Source: a virus (lineage: Duplodnaviria > Caudoviricetes). From it: 64,000 nucleotides of DNA. The position numbers were made by a program, and so were the translations under genes. Below are positions 2,001 to 22,910 of this stretch, one piece after another. A model generated the notes under the pieces. It searched no databases. It had not been told where the DNA came from and was given only the letters and a program-made list of their open reading frames with translations. The DNA lies in IMG/VR virus record IMGVR_UViG_3300021387_001709, positions 96,001 through 160,000 of that record, one strand, 5' to 3'. Each line of letters begins with the position of its first letter. The stretch's first letter is position 1.

Positions 2001-2255
2001 TTAGCTTTCATCAACCAAGTAATATTCTATGGTTAATGGTATAACCACAAACTCAGTATTTGTTTGAAAGTCTTCCATATAGTTTCTAAGAACAGTAATT
2101 GCAATATCTCGATCATATGTTTTAGTAGCCAGTTCAATATTAGTTACAATTTCCCACTTATGGTCGTGCAATGAACGTAGATATACAGTTTTACCCTCTG
2201 CGTCAATAGAGGCTATTACATATTTATTTATAGTTTTTTCCAATTGTTTTCTCAT
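2001..2255 (-). CDS. hypothetical protein
   Basis: ORF in operon with RBS. Confidence 0.6.
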   Translation of the reverse strand: MRKQLEKTINKYVIASIDAEGKTVYLRSLHDHKWEIVTNIELATKTYDRDIAITVLRNYMEDFQTNTEFVVIPLTIEYYLVDES

Positions 2256-3404: not shown

Positions 3405-3641
3405 TTACGTAAGTTCATGTTTACACCAAAGGTCAAAATACTTTTTACTTTGTTCTCGATTGAAAATAAAACATAATATTGGATCCCCCGTGTTAAAATC
3501 TACGCTAATATATAAATCAAGAAGTTCACATCCGTGTTTTAAATATAAAGTAGCTTGCTTCACATTGACTATTCGAACACCGTCCTATGGATAATAATCT
3601 TTTCCCGTTATTTCTGAATGTATATCATTAATATCTCTCAT
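3405..3641 (-). CDS. hypothetical protein, 78 aa (1 in-frame TAG; absent from ORF track)
   Basis: ATG 3641 with RBS, MRDINDIHSEITGKDYYP(TAG)DGVRIVN...WCKHELT-TAA. Confidence 0.7.
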
Positions 3642-3674
3642 TCCTTTTAATTCCTTCCTTGAAAAAATCGTAAA

Positions 3675-3715
3675 AAAAGGGGACAGCCACAAAATGAATG
3701 TGTAGTCGTCCCCTA
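3675..3715 (-). terminator. intrinsic terminator-like hairpin
   Basis: AGGGGAC...GTCCCCT followed by T-run on minus strand. Confidence 0.55.
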
Positions 3716-3770: not shown

Positions 3771-4250
3771 TTATTTTGCCGCAAATTTTGGCTTAATCTT
3801 TTTATTCTGATAATTCTTATTTCTATTATCATTCAGAGGTTTATCTTCATTGACAATTGTATTGTCTTCTGAGGTTTTCTCCGGTTCTTCATGCTTTACT
3901 TCCTCAGCAGCCAGTTTAACTTCCGGCGATTCGTTCTTTAATGCCGACATAATTGCTTTAGCATTAGTAGTATCAATCTGCTGAAGCTGATTAATTGCAT
4001 CTTTTATCCAATCCGGAAGTTTTTCAATATACTCTTTATCAAGCGTAAGTTCACTAAGTCTAGCCGCTTCAACCTCTGGTTCAAGCCAATGATTTAAAAA
4101 GCCCGCAGTAATGTTGTATATTTCCTTGCATCTCTCAGAACAATAAGCGTCCATCCAGCGAGGAAGCTTATCAAAATCTGAACAATTAGGGCAGAACTGA
4201 TACTTGCTTGAGCAAATACTGCAGCTTCGTTCAAATTTCTTTTTAGCCAT
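3771..4250 (-). CDS. hypothetical tail-region protein with N-terminal Cys cluster
   Basis: CxxC/CxxC/CxxxC N-terminus, RBS GGAGG. Confidence 0.7.
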   Translation of the reverse strand: MAKKKFERSCSICSSKYQFCPNCSDFDKLPRWMDAYCSERCKEIYNITAGFLNHWLEPEVEAARLSELTLDKEYIEKLPDWIKDAINQLQQIDTTNAKAIMSALKNESPEVKLAAEEVKHEEPEKTSEDNTIVNEDKPLNDNRNKNYQNKKIKPKFAAK

Positions 4251-4264
4251 TATTCTTTTCCTCC

Positions 4265-5539
4265 TTAAAAATTAATAATAGGTTTTTCGATATCTGTATC
4301 TATAGTATTTAATTTCATAACGTCAATATAACTATATATGTCAAACGGTTTATCAATACCGTGTTTCTTTCTTATCTCATTTATATACTCCTGAAGTTGC
4401 TCTGGGGTATTGTTTTTTGCTCCATACTTATGATGAAACGAACCATATATAAACATATTATGATATTTTTTATCCAATATAATGGTGTTCCACTCTTCAA
4501 ACATATATTCTGGATATGTTGACATGGGATATATATGATGTAATTCCAGATTATCTGTAACTGTATTGGTAATATAACAAACGGATCCATATTTTTTAAT
4601 AATTGAATCTCTCCAATGTTTATACGGTTTACTACTTCTAATCCTTTGATTTAGTGTTTTTTCTCCGCCTTTCCAGTTGGGATTATTTTCTCCGGTATAA
4701 TGCCAGCCACCGCCACAGGTTTTGGCGTCACCTTTTCGTAAAACACTACCTCTGATACTTACATCGTTTCCACATGAACAATGACAAAACCAATACGGTA
4801 CTCCGTCAACGGATTTATCAAAAGCCGTTACGGTTAATTCCCCATATTGTTTTCCTACTAAGTCAATAAGACCAATCCCTAATCTGGCACACTCAGGACA
4901 TTCAAAATGTTTAATTTTAGACTGAGCAATTTCTCTTAAGTAATCATCATGTTTCCCATTATTGCATTTCCAATACACTTTTTTATTTGAATTACAATAA
5001 TAATCATATGGAGTCATTTCATTTTTATTTGACCAATAAAGAATGCTGTCTGGGTATATGACTCCTAAAGATTTTTCTTTTTTTACAGCGGCATCGTTCG
5101 GAATCCATTTACCTTTTGGCCTAAAAAATCTTTCTGGAACAATTGTTTTTACTCCACCATTATCCAAATCATTTATTTTAATATCAATCTTAGACCTAAA
5201 GCTAATATCCCATGGGGTGAAACCATTGTCTTCGTTCCAAATTTTTTCTAAATAATCAATGCCATATTTATCTATAACATGTTGGGCAAAACTAGAACAT
5301 GCTCTACATGCCAGTTCTTGATGTTCTCCATTTAACCTCCCAAGTGGATATATTTTATGTGATTCACTTTCATGAATACCCCTTGGACATTTTAACCAAA
5401 CATCTTTTTCAGAACCCATTGATAATTCGCCTGGACTAAAAGCATTCTTTTCATAATCCCACCTATTTAATAAATCGAATCTAGAATGATCGTTACACCA
5501 TTTATCAAAATAATATTTTTCTTTCTTTCCCATTTTCAT
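4265..5539 (-). CDS. free-standing HNH-type homing endonuclease with zinc-ribbon repeats
   Basis: Repeated WxCxxGxH...CxxC units, NPNWKGG, C-terminal LELHHIYP...N...H...FH; AT-rich insertion in tail module. Confidence 0.7.
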   Translation of the reverse strand: MKMGKKEKYYFDKWCNDHSRFDLLNRWDYEKNAFSPGELSMGSEKDVWLKCPRGIHESESHKIYPLGRLNGEHQELACRACSSFAQHVIDKYGIDYLEKIWNEDNGFTPWDISFRSKIDIKINDLDNGGVKTIVPERFFRPKGKWIPNDAAVKKEKSLGVIYPDSILYWSNKNEMTPYDYYCNSNKKVYWKCNNGKHDDYLREIAQSKIKHFECPECARLGIGLIDLVGKQYGELTVTAFDKSVDGVPYWFCHCSCGNDVSIRGSVLRKGDAKTCGGGWHYTGENNPNWKGGEKTLNQRIRSSKPYKHWRDSIIKKYGSVCYITNTVTDNLELHHIYPMSTYPEYMFEEWNTIILDKKYHNMFIYGSFHHKYGAKNNTPEQLQEYINEIRKKHGIDKPFDIYSYIDVMKLNTIDTDIEKPIINF

Positions 5540-5571
5540 TTCTCCTTATAATGAATCTCCTAAATTTAGAC

Positions 5572-5640
5572 AAAATAAAAGAGCGGGATAGGAGTTTCCC
5601 GCTCTTGTCAGTTGGGTTGCAAAACCAACCTATTTATTTT
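5572..5640 (-). promoter_or_regulatory. three-way-junction RNA element upstream of HNH gene
   Basis: Outer stem AAAATAAA/TTTATTTT, TTGCAA-loop hairpin, second hairpin with anti-SD loop CTCCTA; same architecture at 16858-16925. Confidence 0.55.
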
Positions 5641-5696
5641 TAAATAAAACCGCCGGATTTGACCCCGACGGCTCTTGATAGTTAAACGATAATAAA

Positions 5697-10927: not shown

Positions 10928-13201
10928 TCAAGCGTTATCAATAATCACACCAAACAGCTCATCAATAACAACGCCGATTCCCTCGTAGTACCAGATCTCA
11001 GCTTCAATTGTACGATCCTGAAGAGAGCCGTCCATTCCACGTTCGAAGTATTCTACGTCGCCCTCATTAACTCTCTTAATCGGTTTGAAAGAGTCATCAA
11101 TCGGAACGATGAAAATCTTCTTATTATCATTAGCGGTAAAGATAGAGGTACGAGTGCCTTCCTCATTTACTCTGTCAAGAACAAGACAATCATAGCCTTC
11201 CCACATTCCAAGCATACCTTTTTCATGGAGTTCCTGTTTCATATCATTACTCCACATTTTGTAATTCACGGTATTCTGAAGTTTCTGCATTGCAACACGA
11301 GTACCTACAAGCATAACATCCTTACCGGTTGTAGCTTTAACTGCCTCAATTTTATCAATGATAGAATCTTTAGTAGCCTCAGTAATTGCAATACTAGCTT
11401 TCATATCAGCCGGAAGATAAGAGTCAAGGCTCATGAATGCAGTATAAAGCGCAGAATAACGATGTTTTTCGATGCTTCTATACATAAGGTCTACCATTTC
11501 GGAGAAATCAACCTTGCCAAGCATAAACATCTCAAAATCAGTATAAACTTTAATTACATACGGATAAGTATCAATCGAGAATCCTTTTCCCGGAAGGACT
11601 TTCTGACGTACACTTTTTTGTTTAACATATATTATTTTTCCAAATTTTTATCATCAAATATAAAATGCCAATGGTATCCTCCGCAGGTATGACGTTCACC
11701 ACGGCAAGCTTTTAGAATTCCTCCGCTTTCCAGTTGTAATTCCTTTGAAGCAGTAGAGGCATTTATATATTCCATATTTAACTCTTCACAGAATACTTTA
11801 GTATAATTTTTATTATAAGGTTCGTAATGTTTCTCTTTTTTCGCATCACTTATTTTCTTTTTTGTCTCCTCTGTATGATGCTTTCCATACATAACATTAT
11901 TCTCACCAAGTATTCTTTCTTTATTTAAAGGATTTTCCCAATAGCGTCTTGTAGTCTCACTCCTTCGTTGTCTCAAATCCCCATTTTCATATGAGCGTTT
12001 AACGGACTCACTCATTTTATTTTTTATTTCATCCGTATAATATGAGGAGCAATTCTACCCACCTGTTTTTTTATTATATCCATACTTTCTGTTTAATGCG
12101 TTATAATATTCAATATAATATATTTCTTTTTCATCAAGTTCATTTGCATCACATTCCTCTATAATATAAAAAATGAAATTATTTTCTCCATATTTATTCC
12201 AAGAATTCTGCAAATGACTATTCCCATGATAGTTTGACTTCAATGCATTTTTATGTTTTCTCCATCTGTCATATATATCATGTGCCTATCCGACATATTT
12301 TTTATGATTAACTATATTTTCTATACAATATATCCCAGATATTATATCTTTCTTCATTATTACCTACCTTTTTTATATTTGGAAAAATAATTTTATTGGG
12401 GTCGCTACTCCCAGTTCGGTTTAAAACCGCTCAAGCTTTCACTTGAGAACAGACTATATCTTTTTCGTTAAATAACGAACACACCATTTCCATTTAAGGG
12501 GTTTTCACCCACCCGCTTGGGCCGTACTCCTATTGTCACATTATATGACCATGGGATAGTCGTTGAACATTCTCTTATTTAGAGCTTTGCTGCTGATTGC
12601 CCATTACCAAAACAACAGGGGATTTAACCTCGTTGTCATACAATTAATTTTTTCTACTTTCGTAACCATCACATTTGTACTTATTCATTACTCTGTTGTG
12701 GTTTAATTGTCTTTGGGGTTTCCCAGCAATTAGATGTGTATTTTAACATACAGCTTACGCTATACGGACACTGTTTTAGCCAATGTCATGATGATTGCCA
12801 GCCCATTTGCTAACCTGAAGAAGAGCAGTATTATTAGCTGTGAAATAATTCATATCACCGCGAGCAATATTAACATCCTCTACATAGTTCATAAAACGAG
12901 CATTCGTAGAATCCCAGCCGGAAACCATCTTGTCAGCAAGGACATTTTCGATTACAGAACAGATCTCAATGCCATGTGCTCTCCAAGCCTGTCTACGCTC
13001 CATACGTTTGGCATTCTTAAAGTCAATACCAAGAATCTTATTAAACTAGTTACGAATAATCTCAGAAGTCTGAGCCTTAGAATATTTTTCATAAACACCA
13101 TTTGTGGCGTCCATCATAAGATCGTTGAACTGAAGCATATTCTCATAGTTATTATCAAATTTTGCAACAACATTATTGCTAAAGCATGTAATATCTTTCA
13201 T
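10928..13201 (-). CDS. major capsid protein, 367 aa; exons 12783-13201 and 10928-11612; 1 in-frame TAG (13046)
   Basis: RBS GAGGTG, ATG 13201; spliced junction GNHHDI|VRQKVLPG; size and position after scaffold and decoration genes. Confidence 0.82.
11613..12782 (-). mobile_element. group I intron, 1170 nt, carrying a GIY-YIG ORF
   Basis: P1 GACAU/GUGUC with U.G, P10 ACA/UGU, R UUCAACGACUA, S AAGAUAUAGUCU, terminal G 11613. Confidence 0.9.
11632..12357 (-). CDS. intron-encoded GIY-YIG homing endonuclease, 241 aa (2 in-frame TAG)
   Basis: SGIYCIEN...KKYVG(TAG)AHDIYDRW..H; NUMOD3-like GKHHTEETKKKIS; C-terminal TCGGYHW. Confidence 0.88.
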
Positions 13202-13919: not shown

Positions 13920-15629
13920 TCATTTCCTAGAATTAAGAAGCCCATCTAAAAACGAACTGTTATGTTCTACCCTTGCAAATGCAAAGAAATCTTTCTTCGG
14001 TTCTTCTTTCTTCTCGGAAGTATCTGCCGCAAAATTTAACTTACCGGCCTTTGCATACTGAAGCAGAATTGCGTCAGCTTTATCTTTGACTTCATCAACC
14101 GTAAGATTAAAATAATTCTCACGTTTCTTAAGATCTTCAAATTCCTGAGTACCGGCAATACTTGTATAATCTGCGGAATTAAGAACTTCAACCTTCTCCG
14201 GTTCAGATTCATATTTAGCAAGTTTATCAGAAATATCAGAATAATTACTCTTCATAGACTCAAGCTGAGCTTGCTCGTCCTTGCTTAAATACGTACAGAA
14301 CACCTCGGTGCGATCACCCTTTAAGGAATATACATCTTTCTTCACCTGATAAGATTGACGGTAATGTTTCCCATTCCAATAATCATGCATATACACGATT
14401 TTCTCATCTTCCAGTGCGTCCACGTCATACCAGGCATTATCGCTTTCTCCGTAAGTGGAATTCACAAGCTCATAAAGTGCGTTAAGTTTCTCCATCAGAG
14501 TAGAAGAGAACGTCTTTACTTCACCGTTAAAAGACACAGTTTTGTTAATACTATATTCCTTCTGCTGACCATTGTTTAGAACACCGTCATCAGTTACGGC
14601 GTCTTCCGGTTCTTCTTCCTCAGAATCGTCGGTGGTGTCTTCGTCATCAGAAGTGCCTTCGCCATCCGAATCATCTTCTCCATCAAATTCATCAACCACT
14701 TCGGGAGTTTCTTCGGTAACTTCTTCATCCACTTTTTCAGAAGATTCTGTCTCGGTAACCTGAGTTTCCTCATCAATGGTTTCATTCAATTCGATGTTTT
14801 CTTCCTCAATAGTCTCATCTGCTTTGTTTTCATCAAATTCCAAACCATGTTCCTCCTTTCTTTGGTCGTTATTTATATGATTATCAAGCTTATTCATAAC
14901 AGCTTGCGTAATCTCATCAATCAATTCTGCCTTATTAAACATAACAGAATTATTTTCGGCGCTAAAATCAGCAATATCTAATCTGGCGCCCTCCATGCCT
15001 TCACCAATTTCTTCTCCGGAAACGGGATCTACTCCGAGTAATGTGGCACCTAACACAACCACATCTTCAAGGACAAGTTCCTTCTCCTTTGAATCATAAG
15101 ACATTTTATTTACACCCAATTCAGCAGAAAGTTTCGTCCCGCCTTTGCGTTCAATTATATCGGCAGCAGCAGTGTAGTTTCTCGGAATTGCGCATTTCGC
15201 AAACAAATATTTTCTGTCTTCATGCTCAGAATCCTATTCGATATAAGGTTTATCTGCTGTAAAGCATCCCACTTGTTTTTCATAGTATGTAATAGAACCA
15301 TCATCATTAAACTCAAAATCGTGAGAAGTAAAATCCAGTTCTCCGTTTACATCTGTAAAATTTGCAAGAATCGGTTTATACGCAACAGTAGAAGCGCTAT
15401 TCTTCAAACCTTCTTCTGTTAAATTTGACCGGTTTTTGTTGCGTCCGCAATGCATCAGCTTAACCGTACCAATTAACAAAGAATCATCTTCTGAATCTTC
15501 CTTATCAAATACCGCCGGCACTTGTACACTTAGCTGATATCCAGTCTCTTTCGAATCAAAAGAATTAAAATTCTGCTATTCACAAAATTCAATTAAATTC
15601 TCTAATGTCAGAATTTTCTTCTTCAACAT
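13920..15629 (-). CDS. prohead protease/scaffold protein, 569 aa (2 in-frame TAG)
   Basis: RBS GGGAGG, ATG 15629; HCGRNKNRS, acidic linker, coiled-coil C-terminus; internal RBS plus TTG at 14843. Confidence 0.78.
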
Positions 15630-15676
15630 ACTTCCTCCCTTCTTTTTAGAATTTCTCTCCAAAGAATAGGAGAGTA

Positions 15677-15859
15677 TCAAAATGTTATTTTATTCGTAAA
15701 ATTTAACTTCATACCGTCATCAGCGGAAAACGTCAAATTAGTATTATTAATAAATACCCATTGACTCCCTTCTTTCGGAAGTTCTTCGTAACCGAGTTGG
15801 CGCAATTTCTCGGCGGTTTCCTCATCAGATGTATGAATAAAAAATTGTTTATTTCCCAT
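15677..15859 (-). CDS. hypothetical protein
   Basis: RBS AGGTGA before ATG 15859. Confidence 0.6.
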   Translation of the reverse strand: MGNKQFFIHTSDEETAEKLRQLGYEELPKEGSQWVFINNTNLTFSADDGMKLNFTNKITF

Positions 15860-15863
15860 AATA

Positions 15864-16088
15864 TCACCTACAAACATCATTAATTATGTCAGCGGTTTTT
15901 GTAAGTTCTTCGCGAGCCTTTTCACTAAACCCTGTGTCAGCAACTAATGCCTATGCAAGATACAGACAAAAATTTAGAAGAAATTCATCCTCAACATCAG
16001 TAGTAGATTCATCACTATTAAATACCTTATCTGATATTTGGTTATATTTTTCTATACACTCAGTTGTGTTTGGGTAAAAATTTTTCAT
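15864..16088 (-). CDS. hypothetical protein, 74 aa (1 in-frame TAG)
   Basis: RBS AAGGA, ATG 16088, TGA 15864. Confidence 0.55.
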
Positions 16089-16095
16089 TTTCCTT

Positions 16096-16818
16096 TTATC
16101 TCCTTTTATAATTTATATTTTCAAGTAATAGTTTATATTTATCCGGAAGTTCATTTAGACGATACCAAAAATATCCGTAAGCCTTGTGTGTTTTACTAGT
16201 AATAGTATAGGCTAATTTTAACGTTTTCTATTTAAATTCTGGATTTAAAGAAATAATTATACTCGGTGAATCATATACACCTATTATTTCAGTACAAGCA
16301 TCATTCATCTATATGATGCCACCGTATTTTTGCTTGAACTTAAGCGTACATATCTCACTGCTTGATAACCATTTAATATTATGTTTTAGTAATATTTTTT
16401 TAATCGTTTCGGGTGATACCTAAAAATATTTCGCCGTAAGACCAGCTATATAATTATTCTATATATGGATATTAATAACTTTCTCTTCGTCCAAATTTAA
16501 ATAACTTTTGCCATCTCCGCCGAGAGTCCCATTATATCCCTTACAATCTTTGTATCCTACATATGCACGATATTTTTCAATGTAATATTTTTCTCTATCA
16601 CATAAATACTAACCATTTTCAGCTTCTTCAATTACATCAAAATGAAAATGCTCTACGCCATAACAATTCATCGCGTCATATAAAGGGCGCTTTTCAAATC
16701 TCCGGCGCTTATAATCACTCTAGTGTTCTTTCCATCTATCATAAGGATTATTATCCTCTGTTTTCCCAATATAAACTTTATCATTAATGTCGCAAGTTAT
16801 TTTATAAATCCAACCCAT
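16096..16818 (-). CDS. free-standing GIY-YIG endonuclease, 240 aa (5 in-frame TAG; absent from ORF track)
   Basis: MGWIYKIT...KVYIGKT...RWKEH, REKYYI, GYNGTLGGDG, C-terminal KAYGYFW; RBS AGGAGG. Confidence 0.85.
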
Positions 16819-16857
16819 AATTTTACCTCCTAGTGTAATATAACCTAGCTATCATAA

Positions 16858-16925
16858 ACACAGAATAGGAGAGAGCTAGGACATCTCTCCATATAAGGTT
16901 TGCAACTCCTTATATTATTCTGTGT
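16858..16925 (-). promoter_or_regulatory. three-way-junction RNA element upstream of GIY-YIG gene
   Basis: Outer stem ACACAGAATA/TATTCTGTGT, TTGCAA-loop hairpin, hairpin with anti-SD loop TCCTAGC. Confidence 0.6.
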
Positions 16926-16928
16926 GAG

Positions 16929-17000
16929 CAAGGGCGCCAGGTGCCGTCCCCGGTCCTCGCGGGTTAGAGCCGCGCGCACTAGCTGGTATGCTACGCCCCT
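16929..17000 (-). tRNA. amber suppressor tRNA (anticodon CUA), presumed Gln
   Basis: Acceptor AGGGGCG/CGCCCTT+G73, D stem GCAT/GTGC, anticodon arm CGCGG-CTCTAAC-CCGCG, T arm CCGGG-GACGGCA-CCTGG; CCA not encoded. Confidence 0.88.
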
Positions 17001-17047
17001 ATAAAACATTAACGCATTACCGCGCTAAATTCATTAAATAAAATAAT

Positions 17048-17072
17048 AGAGCGGGAGCTTAATCCCGCTCTT
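17048..17072 (-). terminator. terminator-like hairpin
   Basis: AGAGCGGGA/TCCCGCTCT stem followed by T-rich tail. Confidence 0.45.
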
Positions 17073-17081
17073 AATTACCAA

Positions 17082-17489
17082 TTATAAATATTTGTCATAA
17101 AATTCATCATTAACTAAATCAACAACTTTATCAAGAATATCAAGGTTTTTAATAGCATCATTTAATTCTTTATAAAGATATCTATTCGGAACAGGATTAT
17201 GTGCTACATCTCCATAAACACGAAAATCATGTTCTGCACAATCTACAAAAGATTTACACTCAGTTTCATCTATATTATAAAATACTACGCCAACTGTCTC
17301 TTCATATTTCCCAGTAGAATCATTATATTTGCAAATCAAATAATTATCATCCGGATAATCTGTAGACTTAAACCATGATATTATTTCATCACCCGGTTCA
17401 TTATCGCAACTATAAATAACATCATAATCAACGCGATAAACCGCACCACATATACTCAATATATTATTTAGTTTTAGAATTTTATACAT
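17082..17489 (-). CDS. hypothetical protein
   Basis: RBS AAGGAG, no TAG. Confidence 0.65.
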   Translation of the reverse strand: MYKILKLNNILSICGAVYRVDYDVIYSCDNEPGDEIISWFKSTDYPDDNYLICKYNDSTGKYEETVGVVFYNIDETECKSFVDCAEHDFRVYGDVAHNPVPNRYLYKELNDAIKNLDILDKVVDLVNDEFYDKYL

Positions 17490-17517: not shown

Positions 17518-19098
17518 TTATGCTATTTCAGAACCAGTATTTCTACTTCTTTCAGCACTACCGCTTAAATCATCGTCATCTGATCTAGGTCTTCCGACAG
17601 TATTACTGGAAGTATTATAACTTGATTGTAGTGGCTTCATCATATCCTTAATACCAATAGCATTCTCAAACCTAATCTTGTTGATTGCTTTATACGGTGT
17701 TCCTTCAACAACAGATAAATAATCCAATGCCGGGCCGCCAAGTGTCGCGGAGTCTTTATATCTCTGAATATAATCATCCTCGTTAAACCAGGTTATTCTC
17801 AGTATTTCAAAGATATATCCCTTTGATATATTTTCTGCAATATAAAAATTCAGCCAAGATTCTAACCTATTTACCCAGACCCACACATTTGATTGATCCG
17901 CAAGCTGAGCAAATTTAATAGCCAGATTAGAAGTAGAATTACCGCCGGACACAACTGTTTGTGTTAATCCGCTGTTAGAAAACAGATTATTTATAGATTT
18001 CGCTAACGCATCTGTATCCGACGCATGTGACGTGTCATTAAACGTGATTTTATCGATATCAAATGGAGCAGTAATAACACCGACCAAATCCGGCACTGAC
18101 TGTTCCTCAAGCTGTCGAAAATAATTAACCATCTCCATTGAGATAGCAAAATCATCAACATCCCCGCTATTACCATTGTCCACTAACGGTATCTTATTCA
18201 CAATCAAAGCATAATTCTCAAGTTCTGTTTTAGATTGAAGAATCTGCTACAAATCAAGCAAATCTAATAAATCCGTAAACAGCGGAAGAAAATATGGCAA
18301 TGGGAAAGAGAACTCATCTTCCGGACCAATTAACAAAACACAACATTTTTCGGGAGGTAATCTAAACCATTGATAATCTCGTCCGCCATCCTTATATGAA
18401 CGATATCCGTTAATAAATACTTCATCCCATGTTGCATAACTTCCTTGTCCGTCAACTCCAAGGACAAACTCACTATTGTTGGCTGCATCAAAAAATGCCG
18501 CATTAAAATACACAACCCACTCGCCATACTCATTTTTTCCTACAATCCTACAATACTGAACATCTAACGGCATTAAAAATGTTCTTCCCTATTTATTCTC
18601 GTAAACATACCCAGCATAAAATCCGTCACGGATTGCAAGATATAATGCGGTATACATATCTTTTTTTAGGCTGAATTTATCAAAAGTCTCGAGTACTTTT
18701 TGATAACCTTTAAGTGCTTTATCAACATCTATATCTTCAGACAAATCATTTGCTTGAGTAATTGTATAATAGAACAACGGCATCGCCGCCATATACATAA
18801 TCATTTTTTGATATAACATTGAGTTCCTGACTAAAAATCTCGAAATTTCTCGAAGAGTATCTTGATTGTTAGCCGGAGACTAAACATATGTTTTTACGAG
18901 ATCTTTAGTGTATTGCGTGAAAGTTCTGTTTACAGACCTAGTGGCGTTACGCTGAAGAATTTCTTCCATTTTTGCGAATGTCATTGTCTGCGCACGTTCA
19001 CGCTTATATGAAAAATCCTCCACATCCGTGGGAATTGTAGTTATTTTAGTTTCATTATTTTTGGGGCCGCGGTCAGCGGTTTTCTTTCTTGTTGCCAT
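17518..19098 (-). CDS. portal protein, 526 aa (3 in-frame TAG)
   Basis: Four ORF fragments in one frame joined by TAG at 18880, 18589, 18247; PLQSSYNT...VGRP tail; follows terminase. Confidence 0.82.
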
Positions 19099-22808: not shown

Positions 22809-22836
22809 AAACTCACCTCCTTGAAATTACTGATAG

Positions 22837-22910
22837 TAGCGAGGGCCGGCTCTGCCCCGACGATCTCCAGAACATGACTCTGGCGAGATGACTGACTTCT
22901 CTACCTCGCA
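22837..22910 (-). tRNA. tRNA with CAU anticodon, initiator-like acceptor, atypical loops
   Basis: U1xU72 mismatch, GCGAGG/CCTCGC, A11-U24, CCAGA-GTCATGT-TCTGG, T loop GGCAGAG. Confidence 0.75.

Follow-up and report, generated by a model that had tools for sequence, protein, structure and literature searches.

The locus described here bears on the unsettled question of how stop-codon recoding originates in phages and spreads among them. To our knowledge, current models of recoding begin with 'acquisition of a suppressor tRNA' and name no vehicle for it, and in more than half of the recoded phage genomes no suppressor can be detected. We analysed a window of 64,000 nucleotides (bases 96001-160000 of a 189.8-kb phage record that is 98% complete) in which a putative amber suppressor, tRNA(CUA), is followed by a structured RNA and a gene for a GIY-YIG endonuclease, an arrangement that the initial annotation had read as a possibly mobile code-switch cassette.

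The minus-strand genes between position 1 and approximately 22500 depend on TAG read-through for an open frame (up to 12 TAG codons per gene in late genes), and the genes past approximately 23000 contain none. In alignments with 13 relatives, the TAG positions of the portal protein and of a 586-aa virion-module protein fall overwhelmingly in columns that are otherwise invariant glutamine; TAG is therefore decoded as glutamine, and on the basis of these alignments we conclude that the phage uses TAG = Gln. Portal orthologues with 58-98% identity were found in 13 loci. A crAss-like identity was rejected; the nearest annotated portal relatives are large Bacillus and Lactococcus siphophages (25-27% identity), and the host of the recoded large-phage clade is probably a member of Bacillota. 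A megablast search of GenBank phages with a 10-kb region returned no match.

The tRNA(CUA), a 3-nt gap, the junction RNA and the GIY-YIG gene all lie on the minus strand as initially described (Table 1), and they lie away from the other tRNAs: tRNA-Pro, which is the sole tRNA that default ARAGORN and Rfam find in the window, is 5.5 kb from the tRNA(CUA), and five further tRNAs are located beyond the window. The endonuclease gene, at first credited with five TAG codons, contains six in frame (Q33, 70, 120, 133, 170 and 197), that is, six of its seven glutamine codons and the top share in the window; as the first of these falls at codon 33, within the catalytic domain, the proposal that the endonuclease requires the tRNA for its translation is borne out. 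The supposed insertion between portal and protease genes is correct only on one side: the portal gene does lie upstream, although a 135-aa ORF and a terminator separate it from the tRNA, and the right-hand neighbours are a 74-aa gene and the 586-aa protein, for which a protease identity finds no support (no match in Pfam or PDB; phrog_3313 is a family of unknown function). Among the smaller elements, the 35-nt leader 5' of the tRNA has a 100% identical counterpart in contig L003, can still be recognised in L002 and in L010, and could possibly be a promoter or processing signal. The 74-aa protein is acidic and helical (predicted model with four helices, pLDDT 86), and a fold search and atlas returned neither match nor lead for its model; the 135-aa ORF has no match in Pfam or PHROG, and its AlphaFold model (pLDDT 36) is unusable.

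Table 1 Features of the window and backbone sites occupied by the cassette in the window and its relatives
Feature	Position	Strand	Remarks
Portal gene, 526 aa, 3 TAG	17518-19098	-	phrog_2739, 8.4e-86; left backbone flank, site A
135-aa ORF	17082-17489	-	Between portal and terminator
Intrinsic terminator, hairpin + U-run	17036-17070	-	3' of 135-aa ORF; L20_leader tail matches terminator-like stem
Conserved leader, 35 nt	17001-17035	-	5' of tRNA; sequence comparison
tRNA(CUA), 72 nt	16929-17000 (ARAGORN: 16928-17000)	-	ARAGORN -ps
Three-way-junction (3WJ) RNA, 72 nt	16856-16927	-	MFE fold z=-2.9; 3-nt gap from tRNA
5' UTR of GIY-YIG gene	16823-16849	-	Two sites complementary to P3 loop
Free-standing GIY-YIG gene, 240 aa	16096-16818	-	Pfam PF01541, 8.7e-12
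74-aa gene	15864-16088	-	Conserved right-hand cassette member, 9/10 contigs
586-aa virion-module protein	13920-15680	-	phrog_3313; right backbone flank, site A
Second 3WJ copy	5568-5644	-	R1 17.2 bits, R2 51.6 bits; no tRNA upstream
HNH endonuclease gene behind second 3WJ	4265-5539	-	Two DUF4379 domains, 0 TAG
Site A	Between portal and 586-aa gene		Window, L002, L003, L010, L011, L017
Site B	tRNA region ahead of pre-terminase gene		L001, L020, L031
Site C	Flanked by homologues of 3771-4250 and 3405-3692, two adjacent ORFs of the window		L030; with 135-aa ORF
Site D	After homologue of ORF 2001-2255		L032

Relatives were collected from portal-anchored metagenome loci and through a search with the HNH family found in the endonuclease slot, and most are short metagenomic contigs. 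In 10 independent contigs tRNA(CUA) is directly followed by the 3WJ, and the order of the cassette is (135-aa ORF), terminator/leader, tRNA(CUA), 3WJ, endonuclease slot and 74-aa gene. The slot holds an HNH gene in six contigs (L001, L010, L017, L030, L031 and L032) and the GIY-YIG gene in one (the window), and is empty in three (L003, L002 and L020); the nuclease lies approximately 100-110 nt from the tRNA in 7 of the 10 tRNA(CUA) cassettes. Three full-length homologues of the HNH gene were newly found, on independent contigs, and each comes with tRNA(CUA), 3WJ and the 74-aa gene; the slot HNH family stands beside tRNA(CUA) and this small gene in every full-length case (6/6). With flanking genes mapped onto the gene order of the window, the cassette occupies four or more backbone positions (sites A-D); L012 and L020 have no cassette at site A. 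The capacity to switch the genetic code therefore appears to travel as a mobile unit. In L003 the 135-aa ORF is missing, and it travels with the cassette in L002, L030 and the window (tblastn).

As a recurring unit (7/10 contigs, at least four sites, empty sites), the mobile cassette proposed in the initial annotation is thus supported by the comparison, but its strict tie to the GIY-YIG gene fails. Comparison of the interval across relatives contradicts an obligatory joint presence of tRNA and endonuclease: L003 has the identical tRNA and 3WJ, and L002 a different tRNA(CUA) and 3WJ, at the same locus without the endonuclease. Positions 16106-16849 of the window are missing from both L003 (97% identical) and L002 (approximately 92% identical), with collinear flanks, and L003 runs from terminator, tRNA and 3WJ straight to the 74-aa gene. 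Because both keep tRNA(CUA) and 3WJ without the endonuclease, we conclude on comparative grounds that the GIY-YIG gene is a separable, lineage-specific occupant of the slot. It is known from one genome only; no second copy was found in the collections searched, where its relatives are less than 50% identical (catalytic domain) and sit in unrelated contexts. A 10-nt ribosome-binding-site (RBS) word of the gene also occurs on the HNH genes of relatives, and the GIY-YIG ORF therefore occupies a pre-existing slot. This word was rejected as the usual RBS of the phage (one occurrence in 189.8 kb), as was a DNA-binding domain shared by the GIY-YIG and HNH proteins through a nuclease-domain swap (no similarity between them).

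The suppressor itself varies between cassettes, which carry at least five types of tRNA(CUA): the odd one of the window, two long-arm types that each occur both intron-free and intron-bearing, one more long-arm type and a canonical type of 73 nt. In L002 the tRNA of the window is replaced by a tRNA(CUA) with a long variable arm, which a putative group I intron of 231 nt splits, and the homology between the two sequences ends exactly at the tRNA borders. Putative ORF-less group I introns of approximately 200-230 nt interrupt the anticodon loop in L002, L017 and L020. Their RF00028 scores in L002 (29.7 bits) and L020 (40.3 bits) fall under the gathering score of 50, and ARAGORN -i recovers an intact tRNA(CUA) after removal of 231, 198 or 197 nt, with introns that follow U and end in G. 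A review (PMC3984707) covers group I introns that interrupt the anticodon loop of bacterial tRNAs, as well as collaborative homing with free-standing endonucleases, and T4 mobE provides a case of trans-homing (PMC2790892). L002, L017 and L020 resemble collaborative homing in that a tRNA intron lies beside a slot for a free-standing nuclease; unlike in collaborative homing, the tRNA of the window is intron-free, and intron and nuclease co-occur inconsistently among relatives.

The tRNA(CUA) of the window folds into a cloverleaf with stems of 7, 4, 5 and 5 bp, all four intact, a 4-nt variable loop, A1-U72, G73 and 71% GC, and a 7-nt anticodon loop with U33 and A37. Its D loop lacks GG (G18G19) and its T loop lacks T-psi-C (T54-psi55-C56). 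A second tRNA-like gene with a similarly odd T loop is also present. ARAGORN misses the tRNA at its default threshold and sees it only at the lowered one (-ps), and Rfam RF00005 gave no hit to it at the gathering score across the window, nor at E<=10 in a 401-nt stretch. It is nonetheless the sole CUA tRNA that ARAGORN, with or without an intron search, finds in the 189.8-kb genome, and it occupies the exact position of the canonical or intron-bearing tRNA(CUA) genes of relatives. The copy in L011, a contig with an 87% identical portal, has three differences, which replace C6-G67 by U6-A67 and G51.U63 by A51-U63; every substitution preserves pairing and no stem is broken, in a sample of three near-identical sequences. 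Function is also favoured by the complete identity (100%) of this tRNA and its leader to those of L003, next to a portal 3' end that is only 84-97% identical. An exact search of IMG/VR with the anticodon arm returned only the L003 contig and one chance match in a high-GC capsid gene (L007). We suggest that this tRNA is probably an unusual, functional suppressor that inserts glutamine, its charging with glutamine being presumed from the alignment of TAG with conserved glutamine.

The 3WJ downstream consists of an outer stem (P1), a hairpin (P2) whose 9-nt loop contains a 6-nt palindrome (16900-16905) and a hairpin (P3) with an anti-Shine-Dalgarno (anti-SD) loop (16875-16883). This P1/P2/P3 junction was reached independently by the MFE folds of six copies. 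In a register-matched alignment 91% of cells are paired and 10 pairs have double changes (4.3 in shuffles), and in an alignment of 15 copies, which was fitted to the model, 91% of cells are paired and double changes occur in 23 of 25 pairs, with 92 double-change cells compared with 27.6 in shuffles (matched by 0 of 500); slid control alignments are at most 58% paired. Two covariance models (R1 and R2) find two to three copies per genome across five genomes. Rfam had no hit at gathering score in the window and none at E<=10 in 16700-17100. On this comparative evidence, the 3WJ is a structured and strongly covarying leader RNA of free-standing endonuclease genes. In 16 of 18 copies the P2 loop carries a 6-nt palindrome, always at the same position (random-loop chance approximately 8%); six different palindromes occur, all of the form U-NN-N'N'-A, and 15 of the 16 copies have no intramolecular partner within 150 nt on either side (one copy has one upstream match). 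The HIV-1 DIS-type kissing loop is a 9-nt hairpin loop in which a 6-nt palindrome is combined with two flanking bases and one A. The P2 loop has the same layout, which makes dimerisation a candidate function by analogy; unlike that of HIV-1 DIS, the P2 palindrome could instead be read at the DNA level.

Genes that follow the 3WJ include those for HNH/DUF4379, GIY-YIG and endonuclease-VII/NUMOD3-like proteins and for a PD-(D/E)XK protein that has an I-HmuI-like domain; two more cargo ORFs are unassigned. The HNH gene behind the second copy in the window is homologous to the slot HNH genes of relatives (31% identity, E 2e-33). In all eight tested copies with a cargo gene, two sites complementary to the P3 loop lie 5-10 and 19-28 nt past the junction, the distal one overlapping the SD; four additional copies repeat this pattern, and both sites are absent in the three cargo-less copies (3/3). 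Loop and sites change together (UCCUAG/CUAGGA, CCUUUCA/UGAAAGG and CCUCGU/ACGAGG). In front of the GIY-YIG gene, the whole untranslated region between 3WJ and ORF spans 37 nt, with the proximal site at 16844-16849 and the SD-overlapping site at 16828-16833, inside the 10-nt RBS word. Cassette endonucleases carry two to six TAG codons; tRNA-unlinked HNH genes carry none.

From this pattern we infer a leader logic in which the P3 loop would pair either with the SD region or with a decoy site close by, thereby restraining translation of the endonuclease. The endonuclease would thus be doubly gated, by the anti-SD loop of the 3WJ and by the need for the suppressor. A late timing of recoded nucleases has been proposed earlier (bioRxiv 10.1101/2021.08.26.457843), and hairpins that sequester the RBS are known from homing endonuclease genes of T-even phages (I-TevI, I-TevII, I-TevIII, segB and Aeh1 mobE; PMC2988022). 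As in those genes, an upstream RNA structure is able to pair with the SD of the nuclease, and it is presumed to hold the nuclease low on read-through transcripts. Unlike the simple T-even hairpins, however, the 3WJ is a three-way junction with the anti-SD in a hairpin loop and two alternative targets, has a second loop with a covarying palindrome, and is a fold common to HNH, GIY-YIG and PD-(D/E)XK genes.

Assuming that the slot endonucleases act as homing endonucleases, the distribution of the cassette would be explained most economically as follows. The nuclease would cut a nuclease-less relative during co-infection, and repair of the double-strand break would copy the nuclease gene and its neighbours, including the suppressor tRNA, because the two lie only approximately 100 nt apart. 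Co-conversion with occasional ectopic insertion could then account for the different backbone sites and for frequent exchange of tRNA alleles between conserved flanks, and the leader upstream and 3WJ downstream may have served as portable homology for clean tRNA swaps. Late genes and the 6-TAG endonuclease would alike depend on the suppressor. We judge it reasonably likely that a suppressor tRNA-3WJ-endonuclease cassette of TAG = Gln phages is moved in this way, that is, by co-conversion of the SegB type with occasional ectopic insertion, the nuclease being the presumed driver by analogy. Classical homing does not transfer DNA to new sites, and the ectopic moves therefore need another step. 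As L003, L002 and L020 keep tRNA and 3WJ without an endonuclease, the nuclease is dispensable for maintenance of the cassette.

Three other explanations bear on parts of this scenario. The 72-nt element may be a decayed tRNA or tRNA-like processing signal, with read-through achieved by a host tRNA, an unseen phage tRNA or interference with the release factor; its silence in Rfam even at E<=10, a call by ARAGORN only under the default threshold, the missing D-loop and T-loop motifs and the similar T loop of another tRNA-like gene would all be compatible with decay. We nevertheless regard this as improbable, as it must contend with intact stems, the presence of U33 and A37, preserved pairing at both changed L011 pairs, a position that in relatives belongs to canonical or intron-bearing tRNA(CUA), and a 98%-complete genome that has no second CUA tRNA to serve late genes with up to 12 TAG codons; published surveys, moreover, expect non-canonical suppressors that escape detection (bioRxiv 10.1101/2021.08.26.457843). 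We consider it very unlikely that the 3WJ is there for the tRNA and not for the nuclease, whether by aiding 3' processing or stability or by terminating the tRNA transcript. Its start 0-3 nt past the tRNA in 14 of 18 copies, its retention at three nuclease-free loci and a U-rich tract past P1 in several copies speak for such a role, yet tRNA-free copies precede HNH or HNH-like genes (5568-5644 in the window and its orthologues; L028), and the P3 loop covaries with two sites, including the SD, where a gene follows, the sites being absent where none does.

The main rival to cassette movement by the nuclease holds that tRNA and nuclease are coincidental neighbours, selfish 3WJ-endonuclease insertions favouring any tRNA 3' flank and the positions of the cassette reflecting ordinary mosaic recombination of phages. 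Indeed, 3WJ and cargo also follow tRNA-Met (L065), a non-canonical tRNA(CAU) (L064), tRNA-Thr (L020) and a tRNA remnant (L063), so that the adjacency could be owed to a preference of such units for the 3' flanks of tRNAs in general; nuclease-free relatives retain the tRNA, and SegB homologues occur beside tRNAs of all isotypes (PMC13096335). On the other hand, the slot HNH family is found with tRNA(CUA) and the small gene in six of six cases at three backbone sites (A, B and D), the tRNA types are too divergent to be targets of one sequence-specific enzyme, and the tRNA is accompanied in its moves by the 74-aa gene and in some cases by the 135-aa ORF; we consider mere coincidence rather unlikely. 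At the other extreme, the cassette might be a self-sufficient selfish code-switch element, in which the suppressor licenses its own TAG-laden nuclease, nuclease-induced repair spreads the unit into relatives including standard-code phages and so seeds TAG recoding, the 74-aa and 135-aa proteins contribute to the code switch as well (for instance, through release factor 1 or the charging of the odd tRNA) and dimerisation of the palindromic loop makes nuclease expression depend on the concentration of leader RNA; we would put forward this extended version only as a distinctly improbable one.

Our preferred reading, movement of the suppressor cassette by co-conversion, has its closest precedent in SegB (PMC2330249; PMC13096335; PMC2988022), which T4/T6 encode within their tRNA gene cluster as a free-standing GIY-YIG homing endonuclease. 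SegB cuts a nuclease-less relative, which results in preferred inheritance and in co-conversion, or amplification, of nearby tRNA genes (PMC2330249; PMC13096335). Like the gene of the window, T4/T6 SegB is free-standing among phage tRNA genes, with wide co-localisation with tRNAs and an RNA structure that restrains its translation. The likeness in sequence is confined to the generic GIY-YIG domain (PF01541, 45.6 bits, residues 1-89; PHROG homing-endonuclease families, 5e-21), the best phage relatives being less than 50% identical over the catalytic domain; the nuclease activity and target of the encoded enzyme are putative. Unlike with SegB, the linked tRNA is an amber suppressor that underlies the phage's own code, the nuclease ORF needs that very tRNA, the slot is common to unrelated nuclease families and the whole unit occurs at several backbone sites.

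Alternatively coded gut phages have been reported to encode suppressor tRNAs and 'code change modules', in work that also remarked on homing endonucleases with recoded genes and anticipated non-canonical suppressors (bioRxiv 10.1101/2021.08.26.457843; PMC7886860). Those phages likewise use TAG = Gln in late and structural genes, a standard code early and a phage-encoded suppressor; the suppressor was not described in these reports as nuclease-linked, as part of a relocating cassette or as split by a group I intron. In the Jade module the components are a tRNA, an aminoacyl-tRNA synthetase (aaRS) and a release factor (RF), whereas the cassette of the window joins a tRNA to a nuclease. The association of homing endonucleases with tRNAs, the recoding of nucleases and the suppressors of phages are each known on their own. 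In the literature we found no report of a suppressor tRNA and homing endonucleases as a relocating cassette or of intron-split phage suppressors, and the 3WJ leader was found in neither the literature nor Rfam.

In summary, the locus provides a worked example of a suppressor that is missed by standard tRNA finders, together with intron-split suppressors in relatives, and a well-supported new structured leader RNA that is common to three nuclease superfamilies (HNH, GIY-YIG and PD-(D/E)XK). For the spread of stop-codon recoding among phages, the cassette offers a concrete candidate vehicle, that is, a suppressor linked to homing endonucleases, present at several positions and subject to rapid exchange of tRNA alleles.

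Introns that contain no ORF, 197–231 nt long and inserted after anticodon position 35, split the tRNA(CUA) of the cassette in three relatives (L002, L017 and L020), and the same tRNA types occur without an intron at two further loci (L010 and L031). These introns look like group I introns; the scores against the Rfam model RF00028, 29.7 bits in L002 and 40.3 bits in L020, are under the threshold of 50. Group I intron matches are also present in the structural-gene region of relatives (L003 and L020). The window tRNA(CUA) and its upstream leader (16934–17053) are 100% identical to those of L003, and the adjoining 3′ end of the portal gene has 84–97% identity per 100 nt. Constraint or a recent conversion tract may lie behind this difference.

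A second tRNA-like gene of the window, with anticodon CAU, resembles the tRNA(CUA) in having no T-psi-C in its T loop and was not detected by ARAGORN even at low threshold; the same place in L003 is occupied by a canonical tRNA-Met. Behind the tRNA-like gene or tRNA-Met of L002 and L003 lie a three-way-junction leader and an HTH-containing ORF (177/188 amino acids), a pair that is absent behind the window gene. The tRNA-like sequence of another locus, L063, has acceptor, D and T arms and no anticodon arm. A three-way-junction leader comes directly after it, and then a PD-(D/E)XK endonuclease gene that contains five TAG codons and encodes an I-HmuI-like domain.

Features of the window and of related loci (L and G labels)
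Feature	Location	Remark
tRNA-like gene, anticodon CAU	window ~22836–22910 (-)	
Its position in relatives	L002:2780–2856; L003:3338–3411	
tRNA-like sequence, leader and PD-(D/E)XK gene	L063:1400–2233 (G004:17511–18343)	
Intron-split tRNA(CUA)	L002:10108–10425	
Intron-split tRNA(CUA)	L017:6988–7275	
Intron-split tRNA(CUA)	L020:247–531	
383-aa gene	L002:4025–5176	adjoins tRNA-Pro
74-aa acidic four-helix protein	window 15864–16088	homologues aligned (A6)
GIY-YIG + NUMOD3 gene	window 11632–12357	2 TAG
Group I intron match	L003:17323–17578	50.6 bits
Group I intron match	L020:13308–13535	35.1 bits

The 74-aa protein accompanies the suppressor tRNA in nine of ten contigs, and family, fold and atlas comparisons gave no match for it. 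The 383-aa gene of L002 may encode a hybrid nuclease, given its N-terminal GIY-YIG domain and a C-terminal part that matches HNH families (PHROG). The second GIY-YIG gene of the window sits inside a 1.17-kb insertion (11612–12785), absent from L002 and L003, that interrupts one gene (parts at 10928–11530 and 12776–13201) and yielded no intron match in Rfam at the gathering score. The clade is heavily colonized by introns and nucleases.
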